64,000 nt of DNA from Candidatus Eiseniibacteriota bacterium (lineage in GTDB: Bacteria; Eisenbacteria; RBG-16-71-46; CAVPCR01): contig CAVPCR010000006.1 in the NCBI GenBank assembly GCA_963702435.1, forward strand, positions 127,135-191,134. Direction: 5' to 3'. Below, in pieces: positions 4,991 through 45,200 of the stretch. The notes below the pieces were generated by a model. It did not search any database. It saw only the letters and a program-made list of their open reading frames with translations, and was not told where the DNA came from. Every line of letters begins with the position of its first letter. The first letter of the stretch is position 1. A program made the translations under genes and the position numbers.

Positions 4991-6232
4991 TCAACCCGCG
5001 TAACGCCTGACCACGAGGGCGACGTTGTGGCCCCCGAAGCCGAGCGAATTGGACATCACCACGTCGACCCGGGTCCGGCGCGCCGCGTTCGGCACGCAAT
5101 CCAGGTCGCAATCCGGATCGGGCACCTCGTAGTTGGTGGTCGGCGGCACGATGTTGTCGCGAATCGCCAGCACCGCGATGTTGAACTCGATCCCCCCGGC
5201 CGCTCCCAGCAGGTGGCCGGTCATCGACTTGGTGGAGCCGAACGCAACCTTGTACGCATGCTCGCCGAAAACGGTCTTCACGGCCATCGTCTCGTACTTG
5301 TCGTTCATCGGCGTAGACGTGCCGTGGGCATTGATGTAATCGACCGCCGCCGGAGCGATGCCGGCATCCCCGAGCGCGATCCTCATGGCGCGGGCCGCGC
5401 CCTCGCCACCCGGTGCCGGCGCGGTCACGTGGTGCGCGTCTCCGGTCGCCCCGTAGCCGACCACCTCGGCGAGGATCGGTGCGCCGCGCGCCCGCGCGTG
5501 GTCGAGGCTCTCGAGGACGGCCACTCCCGATCCCTCGCCCATGACGAAACCGTCGCGCCCGAGATCGAACGGACGCGAGGCCCGCTCCGGGGCATCGTTG
5601 CGCGTCGACATCGCCTTCATGGCGCAGAACCCGCCGATCGCGAGCGGCGTGATGGTGGCCTCCGCACCGCCGGTGACGACCAGGTCCGCCTCTCCCTTGG
5701 CGATGATGCGAAATGCCTCGCCGATCGCATGCGCACCGGAGGCGCAGGCGGAGACCGCCGCGAAGTTGGGACCGCGGTAGCCGAGGCGGATCGAGATCTG
5801 CCCGGCCGCCATGTCGGCGATCATCATCGGGATGAAGAACGGACTGATGCGCGAGGGCCCTTTCTCGACCAGCGCCGCGTGCTGGGTCTCGAGGGTCTCG
5901 ATGCCGCCGATGCCGGAGCCGATGATGACCCCGGCCCGGTCGAGATCGACGCCGTTCTCGCCGTCGAGCCCGGCCGCCGCCACCGCTTCGAGCGCCGCGG
6001 CGATGCCGTACTGCACGAAGAGGTCCGTCCGGCGGATCTCCTTCTTGTCAAGGTAATCCTCCGGCTTGAACCCCTTCACCTCACCGGCGATCCGCGTGTC
6101 GAAGCCACTCGCGTCGAAGCGAGTGATGAGGCCGATCCCGCTCTGGCCCTTGACGATTGCGTCCCAGAACTCGGGAATCGAGTTCCCGAGGGGGCTCACC
6201 GTACCCAGCCCTGTGACCACCACCCGATTCAT
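4991..6232 (-). CDS. fabF: 3-oxoacyl-ACP synthase II
   Basis: [17 protein letters not shown]...[13 protein letters not shown]...NAHGTSTP...[12 protein letters not shown]...[10 protein letters not shown], full length 413 aa. Confidence 0.96.
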
Positions 6233-39832: not shown

Positions 39833-39949
39833 CGTCTCTCCTCCGGAAGGTCAGCGTATCGCGCACATCCTTCAATGCATGTGAAAAGCGGCTGCAATCT
39901 AGCACGGGGCTTCGGCGAGGGTCAACCGGCGGCGGCACGATGCGCCCCG

Positions 39950-42430
39950 GTGGCGCCGGTGTACGCGCGCACGGCCGTCCGCTGCGCCCTGCTCTGCGCG
40001 CTCGCCGCGTTCTCGACGCTCCTCGCCTGCGCCAAGCGCCCCACGACCCCGACCGCGATCGCCATCGAGGAGGCGTCGGCGCGCGCTTACCGCTCGCTCG
40101 TCGAGTCGGTCGGCATCGACTCGAGTCCCGTCCGCGACAAGACGATCGTCCTTGATCCGGGGCATGGCGGCGGCTATCGCGGCGCCGTCGGCCGCCGCGG
40201 GACAGCCGAGGCCGACGTGAATCTCGCGGTCGCGCTCTTCCTGTGGGGACTCCTCGACGATGCCGGAGCGCGCGTCACCCTCACGCGAAGCGCCGATCGC
40301 GATTTCGTGGGCGGGGCCCTGGCCCCCCCGGCGATCGTTCCCCTGGCCACCGAGGGCGCAGTGGAGACCAACGCCGCACCGCCGCCTCCCGCCCATCCGG
40401 ATTCGCTCCCCGCCGACCTCGCGGCGCGCGTCGCCCGCGCCAATCATCTCGACGCCGATCTCTTCCTCTCCATCCATCACAATGCCGACGCCTCCGGCGA
40501 CACGACCCGGAACCAGACCCAGACCTTCTACCGGCTTGGCGATCCCGGCCCGTCCCTCGACGCCGCCCAGGCCATCCACCGCCACCTCGTGCGCAATCTC
40601 ACCCCGGCCGGCGGGCAAGTCCTGCCGGGGAACTACCACGTGCTCCGGAACTCGAACGCAGCGGCGGCGGTCCTCGGCGAGGCATCGTTCCTGACCAACC
40701 CGGGGTTCGAGGAGAAGCTCCTGCGCATTGACCGGGTCGAGCTCGAGGCCACGGCCTATTTCCTCGGGATCGTCGACCACTTCGCCCGCGGGGTGGCCTT
40801 CGCGCACGCCGTCGCCCCGCGCGACACGACGCTCGATCGGGAGACGGTCGACCTCCGCGCCCGCTTCGCCGGGGATCGGATCGATCCGGCGACGGTCGAG
40901 ATCGCGCTCGACGGCACGCCGCTGCCCGTGCGGCTGGCGGGGGGAACGGAGGGAGCGGCCGCGGCGGCCGAGTTCGCGGCGGCAGCCCCCGCCCCGCTCG
41001 CGAACGGCTGGCACGAGGTGCTCGTCAGCGGGCGCACGCTCGGCGGCAACGCAGCCGCTCCCGCCCGCGCCCGGTTCGAGATTCGGCGCCCGCCCGCGGA
41101 AATTCGCGCCGAGCCGTGGCCGCCGTGGAACGGCACCGAGACGCGGGGCCCGCTCGGGCTCGAGGTCGTGGTCCGCGATCGCTTCGGCACGGCGGTCGCC
41201 GACTCGACCGCAGTCGAGCTGACGAGTCCGGTCGCCGCCCGCGCGCTCACGCGCGGCGGCCGCGCCTGGTTCCGGCTCGCCTCCCCGCCCGCGCCGGATG
41301 CGCGCTGGACGGTGGCCGCCGGGGCCGCCGCCGTCTCGGTGGCAGTCGTGACCCCGGGCGCCCCGCCGCATCGATCGGGGACCGTCGTCGACCGCGCCAC
41401 CGGAAAGGGCGTACCCGGCGCCGAGATCCGCGCGGCCGAGACCGGCCGGTGGCTCGGCCGGGCCAACCCCGACGGGGAGTACGCCGTGCCGGTCTCGCTC
41501 CACACGCCCGCGCCCGGAGGACCCGCGTATCCCGATGGCTTCGTGGCGAGAGCGCCCGGCTATCTTCAGCGCCGGATCGAGGCGTCGCCCGTGACGAGCC
41601 GGGTCGCGATCGATCCCGTGCTCGGCGGCGTGCTCCACGGACGGCGGGTGGCGGTCGACGCGGCCGGAGGAGGCGCCGATCCGGTCTTCGTCTCACCGAC
41701 GGGAGTCCGCGCGTCGGATACGGCACTCGACGTGGCGCGGCGATTCGCCCTGGATCTGGCCCGCGCCGGGGGATCGGCCGAGCTCGTGCGGGACGAGGAT
41801 CTCACCCTCCCCGACCTCGGACGCGTGGAGATCGCCGAGCAGAGCGCGGCGGCTCGCTATGTCCGCATCGGTGCCGACCGCGTCCCCCGCATCCGCCACT
41901 ACCCGGGAAGCCGGCGCGGCGAGGCGCTGGCCCGCGCCATCGCGCGCGAGATCAAGGAGGAGACCGGGCTCGCGCTCGACATCCGCGCCGAGGTGACGCC
42001 CGTGCTGCTCGCCACCAGCATGCCGGCCGTCGAGATTCTCCTCCCGGCGCCGATCGATCCAGCCGGAGAAAACGAGCACCTCGACCCGGACTTCCGGCGC
42101 CGCGTGGCGCGGGCCCTCCTCCTGGGCATGGCGATCGAGGCAGGTCTCGATCCATCGCGCCTGGCGGTCGTTCGCTTGAAGACGCCGGACCCCCACGTGC
42201 TCCTCGACGGGGCGATCGTCCTTCCCGCCCGCGGCGGCGAGGCCCTCGTCCGCGGGATCGAGCCGGGGCCGGCCGGCCACGAGGCGGCATCGCTCGGAGC
42301 GGATGGGGCGGTGGGGCGCGGGATCGGCTTCACGGTCGAGGGGCCCGCGGGAAGCTCGCCGCCGGTCCTCACCGTCACCCTCGAGCCCGCCGGAACCCCC
42401 GGCGGGCGGCCCGCCGGCGCGCGCCCGTAA
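39950..42430 (+). CDS. Lipoprotein with an N-terminal N-acetylmuramoyl-L-alanine amidase (Amidase_3) domain, a CarboxypepD_reg-like Ig domain and a second, divergent Amidase_3-like domain
   Basis: Lipobox STLLAC. IVLDPGHGGGYRGAVG...ADLFLSIHHNA...VLGEASFLTNP. GTVVDRATGKGVPGAEIRAAETGRWLGRANPDGEY. The second domain is VAVDAAGGG...YVRIG...VEILLPAPIDP. The start (GTG 39950 or 39959) is uncertain. Confidence 0.75.
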   Translation: MAPVYARTAVRCALLCALAAFSTLLACAKRPTTPTAIAIEEASARAYRSLVESVGIDSSPVRDKTIVLDPGHGGGYRGAVGRRGTAEADVNLAVALFLWGLLDDAGARVTLTRSADRDFVGGALAPPAIVPLATEGAVETNAAPPPPAHPDSLPADLAARVARANHLDADLFLSIHHNADASGDTTRNQTQTFYRLGDPGPSLDAAQAIHRHLVRNLTPAGGQVLPGNYHVLRNSNAAAAVLGEASFLTNPGFEEKLLRIDRVELEATAYFLGIVDHFARGVAFAHAVAPRDTTLDRETVDLRARFAGDRIDPATVEIALDGTPLPVRLAGGTEGAAAAAEFAAAAPAPLANGWHEVLVSGRTLGGNAAAPARARFEIRRPPAEIRAEPWPPWNGTETRGPLGLEVVVRDRFGTAVADSTAVELTSPVAARALTRGGRAWFRLASPPAPDARWTVAAGAAAVSVAVVTPGAPPHRSGTVVDRATGKGVPGAEIRAAETGRWLGRANPDGEYAVPVSLHTPAPGGPAYPDGFVARAPGYLQRRIEASPVTSRVAIDPVLGGVLHGRRVAVDAAGGGADPVFVSPTGVRASDTALDVARRFALDLARAGGSAELVRDEDLTLPDLGRVEIAEQSAAARYVRIGADRVPRIRHYPGSRRGEALARAIAREIKEETGLALDIRAEVTPVLLATSMPAVEILLPAPIDPAGENEHLDPDFRRRVARALLLGMAIEAGLDPSRLAVVRLKTPDPHVLLDGAIVLPARGGEALVRGIEPGPAGHEAASLGADGAVGRGIGFTVEGPAGSSPPVLTVTLEPAGTPGGRPAGARP

Positions 42431-42470: not shown

Positions 42471-42499
42471 TTCACCCACCGCGGCTCTTCTTTTACAAT
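42471..42499 (+). promoter_or_regulatory. Possible sigma70-type promoter TTCACC-N17-TACAAT upstream of the rhodanese operon
   Basis: Locally AT-rich (cttcttttacaatgttttacc), ~140 nt before the ATG at 42641. The leader contains 7-bp hairpins at ~42545-42563 and ~42569-42585. Confidence 0.3.
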
Positions 42500-42640
42500 G
42501 TTTTACCGGCGACCCGATCTCCCCCCGCGTATCGTGGATCCGGGTAGCCCGAGCTCGTCGGGCTCGATGCCCGGCGCGGCGCCGGGTTCCCCCGGTCGCC
42601 GCCCCCCGGATCGCGCGAACAAAGAGGCACTTGGAGCAGC

Positions 42641-43270
42641 ATGTCGAACCGAACGGCCCAACGTCCGTCCGATCGCGCGACCCCACGGCGGCGCTCGGTC
42701 CGCGAGGCGCTCTTCATCGCTCTTCTCGGCACCGGGCTCGCCCTGGTCGCCAACGCCCTCTCCCCGCGCGGCATCCCGCTCGTCGGGGACTTCTCGCGGG
42801 GCGCGGCGCTCGCCAACCGGAGCACCGAGGAACTGGCGACGCTGCCGGCGGAGATCGATCTCGCTCACGTCAAGGACATCGTGGCCGCCAGCGCGCGCCG
42901 GGAGGCGCCCGCCGCCCCCGACAGCGCGCCGACGAGTCCCGCCCGCGCCGACACCTCGCTCGCCGCGGCGCTGGCCGCGGGCGCGGTGCTCCTCGACGCC
43001 CGGACCGCCGATGTCTACGCCGCGGGGCACATCCCCGGCGCGCTCAACCTGCCCACGGCCGAGTTCGATCGGGCCTATCCCGGGCTCAAGGCCCGGATCG
43101 CCGCGGCCTCGCTCCTCGTCGTCTATTGCGACGGCGGCGACTGCGAGCTATCGCACGATCTGGCGGGCATGCTCAAGGACCTGGGGCACGGCCCCATCCA
43201 GCTCTTCCCCGGCGGCTTCGATGCGTGGATGGAGGCCGGGTACGACATGCACGAGGGCACGGAACCATGA
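42641..43270 (+). CDS. Membrane-anchored rhodanese-domain protein
   Basis: SD GGAG before the ATG. One TM (LFIALLGTGLALVANAL). Rhodanese core LLDARTADVYAAGHIPGALNLP...LLVVYCDGGDCELSHDLA. Confidence 0.8.
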   Translation: MSNRTAQRPSDRATPRRRSVREALFIALLGTGLALVANALSPRGIPLVGDFSRGAALANRSTEELATLPAEIDLAHVKDIVAASARREAPAAPDSAPTSPARADTSLAAALAAGAVLLDARTADVYAAGHIPGALNLPTAEFDRAYPGLKARIAAASLLVVYCDGGDCELSHDLAGMLKDLGHGPIQLFPGGFDAWMEAGYDMHEGTEP

Positions 43271-43737
43271 GCGTGCGCCGGATTCTCTATCACCTCGTGC
43301 GCTTCGCGGTGGGCGCGGTGTTTCTCTACGCCAGCGTGCACAAGGTGATCGCCCCGGCGGAGTTCTCCCGCACCGTGTACCACTACCAGCTCCTGCCCGC
43401 GGCGGCCGTCAACCTGGTCGCGATCGTGCTGCCGTGGATCGAGGGGCTGGTCGGCCTCTGCCTCGTCCTCGGCGTCAAGATGCGCGGGGCCGCCGCCATC
43501 GCCGCGGTCTCGCTCCTCGTCTTCCTCGTCGCCATGGGCACGGCGCTCGCTCGCGGCCTCAACATCGACTGCGGCTGCTTCGCGGCGTCGGGCACCAGGC
43601 TCGGCTTCGATCGCATCATCGGCGACCTCGTCCTCCTGGCCGCGGCCGCCTTCCTCTACCAGGAGTCGGCGCGCGGATCCGTATCCATCCCCGCGCTCCG
43701 CGGCCTTCAACCCTCGAGCGTCAAGGAGTCGTCATGA
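43267..43737 (+). CDS. MauE/DoxX-family integral membrane protein (DCGCF motif)
   Basis: The ATG overlaps the rhodanese stop (ATGA). There are four hydrophobic helices, with ...ARGLNIDCGCFAASG... typical of MauE-like proteins. Confidence 0.75.
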   Translation: MSVRRILYHLVRFAVGAVFLYASVHKVIAPAEFSRTVYHYQLLPAAAVNLVAIVLPWIEGLVGLCLVLGVKMRGAAAIAAVSLLVFLVAMGTALARGLNIDCGCFAASGTRLGFDRIIGDLVLLAAAAFLYQESARGSVSIPALRGLQPSSVKESS

Positions 43738-45095
43738 CCCGTCGTCTCGCCTTCCTCGCGGTCCTCGTCTCAGCCATCCTGGCCAGCTTCCTCGCGGCGG
43801 GACCGCCGGCGCGGAGCGCGGCGGACCCGGAGATCTTCGTCCTCGCCACGGCCTCGAACCGCGGCGAGGTCGATCCCTGCGGCTGAAAGTCGGCCCGCAA
43901 GGGAGGGCTGGCCCGGAGGGCTGCCCTGATCGACTCGCTGCGTGGACTCCACGCGAACATGCTCGTCGTCGACGCCGGTGGGATGACCCATCCCAACAAG
44001 CAGCAGAATCCGCGCTACAACGACTTCGTGGTCGAGGCCATGAACGCGATGCGCTACGACGCGGTCACCATGGGCCACCTCGAGCTGGACCGCGGGATCG
44101 ACTTCGTGCGCGAGTACGTGCCGAAGTTCCAGTGCCCGGTCGTGGTCTCGAACGTGCGCGTGACGAGCGGCAACGCGCCGTGGAAGGAGAGCGCGGTCAT
44201 CCAGGTCGGCGGGCGCCGGGTGGGCATCCTCGGGCTCGTGAGCGGCGACTACGGGCAGGGCCCCGATGCGCTCTTCCAGGCCGGCTTCACCTTCGAGGAG
44301 CCGCTGGCGGCGGCCCAGCGCCTCCTGCCCGAGCTCGAGAAGCAGTGCGACGTGGTGGTCGCCCTCGCCCACCTCGAGACCAAGGAACTCGACCGCGTCG
44401 TGCGCCATGGGCGCGGGATCGACCTCGTGGTCGCCGGGTACAACCCGAGCCCGGTCAACGCGCAGCCCGACAGTGCGGCGACCACTCTCCTCCGCCCCGG
44501 GCAGCGCGGGGAGCACGTGGGTATCGCGAGCGTGACGCCGGGAAGCCAGGGGGCCGCCGCCACGGTCTCCGGTGTCGAGACCGTGATGCTCGAGATGGCC
44601 AAGTTCCCTGATGACGAGCCGCTCGCCGCGCGCCTCGCCGTGGTCAAGAAGGAGATCGAGTCGGAGACCCGCAAGGCGCAGCTCGAGCAGGAGCTCAAGG
44701 CCCAGGAGGGGCTGATCCTCGGCCAGGACCGCTACCTGGGGGGCGAGGCCTGCGCGCGCTGCCACGCGGGAGAGACCGGGTGGTGGAACGGCGATCCGCA
44801 TGCGCGCGCCTTCGCCACGCTCGAGGCCAAGGGGAAGCAGGCGGATGCTGCCTGCCTCAAGTGTCACGTCACCGGCGACGGCATGCCGGGCGGCTTCGGC
44901 GGCATCGGGACGACGGCCAACATGAAGAACGTGCAGTGCGAGTCCTGCCACGGCATGGGCACCCAGCACGACTGGACCGGGGCGACAGCTGTCCGGCCGG
45001 GCGAGACCAACTGCCGTACGTGCCACACCGCCGAGTGGAGCCCCGATTTCGACTACGGGACCTATCTCGGCCGTCTCGGGCACGGCAAGAAGTAA
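43734..45095 (+). CDS. Candidate selenoprotein: signal peptide + degenerate 5'-nucleotidase/metallophosphoesterase-like domain with PCG-U(TGA 43884-43886) + C-terminal tetrahaem cytochrome c
   Basis: The ATG overlaps the MauE stop (ATGA). The frame is open across a single TGA to 45095. Signal peptide MTRRLAFLAVLVSAILASFLAAGPPARSAA. Four CxxCH sites (CARCH, CLKCH, CESCH, CRTCH). 5'-NT-like blocks GGLARRAALIDSLR, VVDAGGM, MGHLELD and ALAHLE. Confidence 0.6.
43904..43927 (+). promoter_or_regulatory. SECIS-like hairpin downstream of the in-frame UGA
   Basis: AGGGC-U-GGCCC GGA GGGCU GCCCU forms 5 + 5 bp with a bulged U and a G-containing 3-nt apical loop. The stem starts 18 nt after the UGA. Confidence 0.4.
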
Positions 45096-45140
45096 CGGTC
45101 AGGCGCTGAAATCCGCGGCGCGCGCACCGCTGCGGGCGCA

Positions 45141-45200
45141 GCGCCGGGGGGCGCAGCGGAGCGCCGGGGGGCGCAGCGGAGCGCCGGGGGGCGCAGCGAC
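45141..45200. repeat. Three tandem 20-nt units GCGCCGGGGGGCGCAGCGGA, each able to form a GCGCC/GGCGC hairpin, between convergent genes
   Basis: Exact copies at 45141, 45161 and 45181 (the last ends ..GAC). They lie between the cytochrome stop (45095) and the stop of the minus-strand gene (45213). Confidence 0.85.

Follow-up and report, generated by a model that had tools for sequence, protein, structure and literature searches.

A rhodanese–MauE cassette encoded with a Cys-Gly-Sec tetrahaem protein: a putative periplasmic thiol/selenol oxidation relay in Eisenbacteria

We analyzed a 64,000-nt stretch of contig CAVPCR010000006.1 (positions 127,135 to 191,134) from the Candidatus Eiseniibacteriota assembly GCA_963702435.1, hereafter called the window. 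The subject of this work is a three-gene operon within it that encodes a rhodanese-like protein, a MauE/DoxX-family membrane protein, and an exported tetrahaem protein carrying a Cys-Gly-selenocysteine (Sec) motif. The reading that we favor, with a probability of about 0.5, is that this operon specifies a MauE-centered periplasmic thiol/selenol oxidation relay, with the Cys-Gly-Sec/tetrahaem protein as its dedicated partner or client and the rhodanese-like protein as the conserved periplasmic companion of MauE. MauE would act as a DsbB-like, probably quinone-coupled, disulfide-forming oxidase, while the rhodanese-like protein would serve as a periplasmic intermediary or docking adaptor instead of a classical sulfurtransferase. 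The selenenylsulfide center would be oxidized, or re-oxidized during turnover, by the MauE cassette, and the haems would connect the Cys-Sec center to periplasmic electron carriers. What we observed directly are the structure of the genes, their motifs, the protein fold, the alternation of Sec and Cys, the SECIS-like hairpin, and the recurrent linkage together with the fusion. Within this scheme we infer the membrane topology, the direction in which electrons flow, what the rhodanese-like protein does and the physiological substrate.

RESULTS

The operon and its products

The open reading frame (ORF) list and reading of the sequence placed all three genes on the forward strand: the rhodanese-like gene at 42641–43270 (209 amino acids), the MauE/DoxX-family gene at 43267–43737 (156 amino acids) and the selenoprotein gene at 43734–45095 (453 amino acids). 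ATGA start/stop overlaps join the rhodanese and MauE genes at 43267–43270 and the MauE and selenoprotein genes at 43734–43737, and a GGAG-type ribosome-binding site is situated 8–12 nt 5' of each of the three starts. Thus, the inventory of the original prediction (three genes, two ATGA overlaps, the rhodanese loop, the DCGCF sequence of MauE, the CG-U motif and four haem motifs) was confirmed by the sequence and by Pfam. The original prediction also read stoichiometric co-expression from the overlaps. Overlaps of four nucleotides occur at operon junctions more often than any other spacing; they are a sign of translational coupling and do not prove stoichiometry, and the second overlap is not found in all relatives, being kept in loci L081 and L083 and replaced by a gap of 88–100 nt in L082 and L084. 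By the positive-inside rule, the rhodanese domain and the CGC loop of MauE are predicted to face the periplasm, as would the exported selenoprotein.

MauE as a candidate disulfide-forming oxidase

The product of the second gene matched the Pfam MauE family (PF07291) with 97.2 bits against a cut-off of 27, and DoxX with only 28 bits. Its structural model (predicted local distance difference test score, pLDDT, of 86) contained four helices at residues 3–28, 45–68, 72–95 and 114–136, with a conserved Lys in the first transmembrane segment (TM1), a conserved Glu in TM2, and the C102-G-C104 motif in the flexible TM3–TM4 loop. This motif is part of the sequence IDCGCF, and its codons (TGC GGC TGC) occupy 43570–43578 of the forward strand. 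Residues K26, E59, C102, G103, C104 and F105 were invariant in our MauE alignment (A3). The residue following CGCF is Ala in the window protein, the usual residue being Gly.

Functional information on this family comes from a preprint of March 2026 (bioRxiv 10.64898/2026.03.05.709764). MauE homologues replaced DsbB in Escherichia coli, with rescue of a dsbB mutant shown for the Caldithrix abyssi and Desulfatibacillum proteins, and the CGC motif in the periplasmic TM3–TM4 loop was required. The tested MauE genes have the UniProt accessions H1XRV2 and B8FLW7. The conserved Lys and Glu and the Phe after CXC were predicted to contact ubiquinone. The same study proposed MauE as a generalist oxidase that may rank second in frequency among bacterial disulfide-forming enzymes; the partners put forward for it are the thioredoxin-fold proteins DsbA or MauD, and a rhodanese is never mentioned. 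The window protein resembles those enzymes in having four TM segments, CGC followed by Phe in a predicted periplasmic TM3–TM4 loop, the TM1 Lys and the TM2 Glu, and there are phyla common to the preprint and to the loci surveyed here. It differs in that its neighbor is a C-x4-C rhodanese-like protein and in that the two-gene cassette is tied to C-x-C/C-x-U proteins. By analogy with the homologues for which activity was shown, the window MauE is probably a DsbB-like, disulfide-forming oxidase that is probably coupled to quinone. Fold kinship of MauE with DsbB or VKOR was considered and rejected, as Foldseek gave no significant match. A genome scan for the C. abyssi MauE locus returned other Calditrichota, C. 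abyssi not being among them.

Rhodanese and MauE form a widespread two-gene cassette

A scan with the MauE alignment provided 80 species loci from many phyla, and a second sample contained 79 loci that partly overlapped the first (about 160 loci in all). The rhodanese gene was directly upstream of MauE on the same strand in 76 of 80 loci in the first sample and 71 of 79 in the second, often with a 4-nt overlap at the junction. We conclude from these counts that rhodanese–MauE is a widespread two-gene cassette.

The cassette was also found beside unrelated neighbors (L088 and L089). The families enriched directly beside it were exclusively those with C-x-C-type motifs. An exported DUF1573 protein (SCGCT) directly adjoined the cassette on the same strand in 25/80 loci and the UshA-like family, to which the window selenoprotein belongs, did so in 7/80, with one or the other present in 31/80. 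DUF1573 also occurs in U-G-C selenoprotein forms with an in-frame TGA in Desulfobacterales and Syntrophales. The TGA-bearing gene adjoins the cassette, except that in L096 and L152 it lies only within the cassette flanks. In addition, the protein P0053 contains DUF1573 repeats fused to an UshA-like cytochrome. The TGA codons, in the motif G-U-G-C-T(A), were located at approximately 798 in L096, 6688 in L099, 4732 in L103, 6710 in L121, 6705 in L123, 1058 in L146 and 234 in L152.

Several Desulfobacterales cassettes (L100, L110, L142, L147 and others) lie near Thioredoxin_3, thioredoxin, ArsP_1-type permease and ArsR-type regulator genes, and possibly also near ACR3- and CcdA-like genes. These surroundings could be a metal(loid)-responsive context or mere lineage synteny. 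If the former, the Cys-Sec, C-x-C and C-x4-C sites might bind As(III), Hg, Cu or similar elements in periplasmic sequestration or detoxification, which would agree with the established affinity of vicinal thiols and selenols for soft metals and with the nearby ArsR-type, ArsP-type and Thioredoxin_3 genes. However, no such genes are near the window locus or its Eisenbacteria relatives, the Desulfobacterales association may simply reflect lineage, and a binding role leaves the four haems unexplained. We consider handling of thiophilic metals or metalloids improbable as the function of the operon.

The rhodanese-like protein

The first gene product consists of a basic N-terminus, a single TM anchor at approximately residues 23–42 and a rhodanese domain at residues 106–198, which matched PF00581 with 57 bits against a cut-off of 22.2. 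The protein contains the loop VVYCDGGDCELS, which includes C163-D-G-G-D-C168, a C-x4-C motif encoded at 43127–43144 on the forward strand, with the Cys163 codon at 43127–43129 and the Cys168 codon at 43142–43144. C163 directly follows the strand LLVVY, so that the active-site loop opens with a Cys, as in rhodanese sulfurtransferases. Across all fetched loci, the strict loop pattern YCDGxxCxLS was found in 67 of 91 rhodanese-like ORFs hit, and several further ORFs outside this pattern carry a C-x4-C loop by eye. The catalytic Cys was not conserved throughout the orthologues: both loop cysteines are lost in two cassette clades, one comprising L091, L133, L134 and L141, and the other L115, L129, L131, L136 and L148. 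The DxCGCF motif of MauE is invariant even in these clades, and all nine loci with a Cys-less rhodanese carry a large upstream DUF1573 protein with a PSCDCT, TSCPCT or CGC form of the motif. In L103, a TAG at 5676–5678 replaces the Tyr codon just 5' of the C-x4-C loop. The likely cause is pseudogene formation or a sequencing error; a Sec form of the rhodanese was rejected, the in-frame stop being TAG, not TGA.

The original prediction assigned the rhodanese a role as carrier of persulfide or perselenide and proposed a chalcogen substrate. In a sulfur/selenium-transfer module of this kind, persulfide or perselenide would pass from the rhodanese to the Cys-Sec center, with the tetrahaem domain and a quinone-linked MauE/DoxX protein oxidizing or reducing thiosulfate, polysulfide or selenite. 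The Cys retained at the canonical catalytic position fits such a role, as do the presence of DoxX-family proteins in archaeal thiosulfate:quinone oxidoreductase, the complex of Mycobacterium tuberculosis DoxX with the rhodanese-type protein SseA (PMC6930017), and weak SoxB matches of the selenoprotein N-domain (1.8e-12 with the window protein, and values as low as 2e-17 with its relative P0022). However, the C-x4-C loop departs from that of a standard rhodanese, and two cassette clades have no loop cysteines even though the CGC of MauE never varies. The SoxB score is only 46 bits against a cut-off of 550, and the selenoprotein has lost the dimetal site on which SoxB depends. Furthermore, genes of the sox, dsr, psr, phs or selenite-reduction type are absent next to the locus in the window and in its relatives, and MauE homologues function as oxidases in protein disulfide formation. 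We therefore found nothing to support a classical persulfide carrier, which is not favored, and no evidence supporting a chalcogen substrate; a sulfur/selenium-transfer module is unlikely.

The selenoprotein and its SECIS-like hairpin

The third gene product is predicted to be exported by means of a signal peptide. Behind this come an N-domain of the 5'-nucleotidase type and a long linker helix, and the C-terminus is formed by a tetrahaem domain resembling c554. The protein matched NCBIfam NF041198, 'UshA-like (seleno)protein', with 251.6 bits, which is below the curated cut-off of 275 bits. Its relatives P0008, P0022, P0037 and P0040 also scored just below this cut-off, whereas P0074 passed it at 279.3. 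The window protein shares with NF041198 the position of the PCG-U/C motif after the first β strand of the N-domain (DPCG-TGA-KS, 43872–43892), the domain order, and the alternation of Sec and Cys at one column. Its score marks it as a divergent member of NF041198. Profile positions 347–519 align to the haem region of the relatives, indicating that the family as defined already joins the N-domain, the PCG-U/C motif and the multihaem tail. A UshA-like CxU selenoprotein (COG0737) has been catalogued since the 2008 Global Ocean Sampling (GOS) survey and in later reviews; these sources list the family without a function and do not mention linkage to MauE or rhodanese (PMC2398784, PMC9312934, PMC13188914).

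More than 512 loci with relatives were found in a scan of species-representative genomes, and the phyla represented were Eisenbacteria, Latescibacterota, Acidobacteriota, Planctomycetota, and delta- and gamma-proteobacteria. The closest loci to the window were from Eisenbacteria metagenome-assembled genomes, with 70% identity for MauE and 66% for the cytochrome. Among the fetched loci, the column of the in-frame TGA (43884–43886, forward strand) contained 44 distinct TGA forms and at least 19 Cys-codon forms. Alternation of TGA and Cys codons at a single column is the classic signature of a selenoprotein, and the codon is predicted to specify Sec51 of a Cys49-Gly-Sec51 motif.

Shortly 3' of the UGA, at 43904–43927 of the forward strand (conserved core 43908–43924), is a hairpin with a GGA loop that resembles a selenocysteine insertion sequence (SECIS) element and has the consensus CUGGCCC-GGN-GGGCCAG, including the apical-loop G. 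The hairpin was 83% paired across 43 Sec forms, compared to 24–45% for slid controls. Covariation was evident in 16 double-change cells, versus 4.8 ± 1.8 in shuffles (0 of 500 shuffles reached the observed value), and the predicted stability was greater for Sec forms than for Cys forms (−13.6 versus −11.1 kcal/mol, p = 0.006). Part of this signal is protein-driven because the hairpin overlaps the conserved GLARRA codons. An Rfam scan of the window identified a tRNA only, giving no family-model support for the hairpin.

Pairs of adjacent UshA-like paralogues were observed in L001, L002, L009, L024, L051, L058, L073, L080 and L082. Most pairs consist of one Sec form and one Cys form, although L009 has two Sec forms; the window has a single copy. 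Some partners are devoid of a haem domain (e.g. P0028 in L082). The tandem arrangement suggests a heteromer.

The tetrahaem domain and the loss of the metal site

Structural comparisons were carried out with a model of P0008, a Cys homologue that is 55% identical to the window selenoprotein and for which the N-domain was modeled with pLDDT >90. Foldseek matched the N-domain and long linker helix to CD73, UshA and the Thermus thermophilus 5'-nucleotidase (E ~1e-20). Alignment to solved CD73-type 5'-nucleotidases revealed that most of the dimetal ligands are replaced: DxH by S41/R43, GD by DAGG (G82), GNHE by GHLE (H115, L116) and the last GH by GY (Y236), with H212 kept. Across the family alignment, no His is fully conserved; the reactive residues that never vary are C49 and C/U51. 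An active phosphoesterase was rejected since the catalytic His and most of the metal ligands have been substituted, and a SoxB-like hydrolase was rejected on its TIGR04486 score of 46.4 bits against a cut-off of 550. The window protein shares the N-domain fold, the linker helix and the GG(L/V)ARRA helix motif with 5'-nucleotidase, UshA and SoxB, but differs from them in that a tetrahaem domain takes the place of the C-terminal nucleotide-binding domain and the dimetal site is mostly gone.

The four CxxCH haem motifs are CARCH (44751–44765), CLKCH (44853–44867), CESCH (44937–44951) and CRTCH (45012–45026), all on the forward strand. This region matched Cytochrome_C554 (PF13435) with 57.3 bits against a cut-off of 20.8, and the motifs are nearly invariant in the family alignment. 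Because Sec nearly always serves in catalysis as a redox residue, we take the Cys-Gly-Sec pair, with its four attached haems, to be most likely a redox center.

Linkage of the selenocytochrome to the cassette

The original prediction proposed an association of the three genes, and a neighborhood survey established that this association extends beyond the window genome. The link between the UshA-like family and the cassette recurs in five gene arrangements plus a fusion. The order rhodanese–MauE–cytochrome is found in the window, L081–L085, L091, L133, L134 and L141, with L091, L133, L134 and L141 having a DUF1573–rhodanese–MauE–selenocytochrome cluster. L011 has the order cytochrome–rhodanese–MauE, the genes are in divergent orientation in L006 and L086, and a haem-less Sec form is upstream of rhodanese–MauE in L102 (Marinimicrobia). 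In two Calditrichota species, MauE, the UshA-like domain and four CxxCH motifs form a single uninterrupted ORF (L167, 5977–7698; L172, 128–1846). A rhodanese gene is 5' of this fusion, in which the UshA-like part has an NCLC motif and more canonical metallophosphatase motifs. All-against-all clustering of 84 selenocytochrome-family loci identified no other broadly conserved neighbor except the tandem Sec/Cys paralogues.

Several results weigh against an oxidation relay to which the selenoprotein is dedicated. The chief argument against an obligate module is that, in each family, the majority of members are found without the other. In iterative profile searches of 80 species-representative loci of the cytochrome family, rhodanese and MauE were present in only two, L011 and L006, both rearranged Eisenbacteria; the other 78 had neither gene within 8 kb, indicating that the selenoprotein does not need an adjacent cassette. 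Conversely, 73 of 80 cassette loci had no UshA-like gene. The close relatives with the same three genes (L081–L085 and L170, 55–87% identity) share the whole neighborhood (ABC transporter, amidase, binding protein, SurA and L9), and hence their synteny is not independent evidence. Adjacency might also be incidental because MauE is proposed to be a generalist. As for the rhodanese, it cannot be a universal redox intermediary because its cysteines are absent in two clades, one of which (L091, L133, L134 and L141) has the gene order of the window itself. Lastly, the Foldseek search with the MauE model returned no DsbB or VKOR match at E ≤ 0.001, and the CGC loop and haem domain of P0008 were modeled at low confidence.

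These distributions raise the possibility that the cassette performs housekeeping oxidative folding and that the selenocytochrome is an independent enzyme placed beside it by chance in this lineage. The separate occurrence of most family members, the synteny of the whole neighborhood among close relatives and the proposed generalist nature of MauE would all be expected in that case. However, the genes have stayed adjacent through rearrangement into five different layouts, and they do so in groups that are not related to one another (Eisenbacteria, an unassigned lineage, Marinimicrobia and Calditrichota). In addition, two species have a true fusion, and only C-x-C-type families are enriched directly beside the cassette. 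We judge it quite unlikely that the neighbors lack a shared function. The membrane-linked thiol/selenol–haem module of the original prediction therefore stands in part: its motifs are predicted to face the periplasm, the linkage is recurrent and a connection to the quinone pool is plausible from the DsbB-like MauE homologues, but the trio is not obligate.

Sequences flanking the operon

A 210-nt gap separates the operon from the upstream amidase gene. The single promoter proposed earlier for all three genes corresponds to one sigma-70-like site in this gap (TTCACC-17 nt-TACAAT, 42471–42499, forward strand), compared to a mean of 0.2 sites in shuffles. The site is a consensus match only and is weak evidence for a shared promoter.

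The upstream gene (approximately 39875–42430 of the window) encodes an 851-amino acid protein of the cell-wall amidase type, Amidase_3. All close relatives have this gene ahead of the operon, whereas L006, L011 and L086 do not, and we treated it as lineage synteny outside the module. Just past the operon stop, in a convergent intergenic region, is a 20-nt unit, GCGGAGCGCCGGGGGGCGCA, repeated 3.2 times with 97% matches (45136–45198). The predicted folding energy of the repeat region was −75.9 kcal/mol, yet this was just 1.95 standard deviations below shuffles. The repeat could be a terminator or an element of the repetitive extragenic palindromic (REP) type. tRNA-Gln is the sole tRNA within the 64-kb window.

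DISCUSSION

Dedicated oxidase pairs encoded beside their client provide a general pattern for this locus. The DsbL/DsbI pair is encoded beside its client, arylsulfate sulfotransferase. In this pair, as in MauE/MauD with methylamine dehydrogenase, the genes for the membrane oxidase and its periplasmic partner accompany that of an exported cysteine-containing client, as is the case here. The window operon differs in that the periplasmic partner does not have a thioredoxin fold and in that the 'client' contains Sec and four haems. The latter difference makes it likely that the Cys-Sec pair is catalytic rather than structural. The locus is thus a variant of the dedicated-oxidase-pair pattern, with a non-thioredoxin-fold partner and a Sec/haem client.

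Two other systems combine related components. Among experimentally studied systems, the closest parallel to joint action of a DoxX-clan membrane protein and a rhodanese-type protein is DoxX-SseA-SodA of M. tuberculosis (PMC6930017). In both cases a DoxX/MauE-clan membrane protein is combined with a rhodanese-family protein in thiol redox chemistry, although SseA is a cytosolic tandem rhodanese and the mycobacterial system has no CGC MauE motif, selenoprotein or cytochrome. TsoB (NF045694), a rhodanese/DsbD fusion-like protein with a UxxxxU motif, likewise has two chalcogen loop residues four positions apart together with a membrane thiol-redox domain. However, its membrane partner is DsbD-like and fused and its loop residues are Sec, whereas here MauE is a separate protein and the residues are Cys. 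The window rhodanese matched NF045694 weakly (E = 1.5e-5, 23 bits against a cut-off of 805).

The original prediction held that no characterized system has this composition. Each gene belongs to a known family; the selenocytochrome was already catalogued (NF041198; PMC2398784, PMC13188914) and the role of MauE has experimental support. What appears undescribed is the widespread rhodanese–MauE cassette, with its usual C-x4-C rhodanese loop, and the recurrent pairing of this cassette with its candidate clients. Our literature searches on MauE/DoxX with rhodanese, on DUF1573, and on Eisenbacteria with selenocysteine found no description of this association.

A broader interpretation, which we offer as speculation and hold to be doubtful, is that C-x4-C rhodanese, CGC MauE and C-x-C/C-x-U/U-x-C proteins (the UshA-like tetrahaem family and DUF1573) constitute an unrecognized class of periplasmic electron relay. 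Electrons would travel from haems of the c type to the quinone pool, or back, on vicinal thiol/selenol pairs and not on metal cofactors alone; the Calditrichota fusion would be a single-chain form of the relay, and the two orphan selenoprotein families its catalytic components. If this were true, the class would provide a chalcogen-based quinone:cytochrome link.

The oxidation relay that we favor has consequences for both halves of the operon. The native periplasmic partner of MauE is at issue in phyla without a clear DsbA, and the rhodanese-like C-x4-C protein is a candidate for this role, since its gene adjoins that of MauE in about 90% of the MauE subfamily surveyed here. The association also ties two orphan selenoprotein families, the UshA-like PCGU proteins and the DUF1573 UGC proteins, to the MauE machinery, which gives them a testable function. 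If the Cys-Sec/haem protein does turn over through MauE, it would represent a new way to wire haems to quinones.

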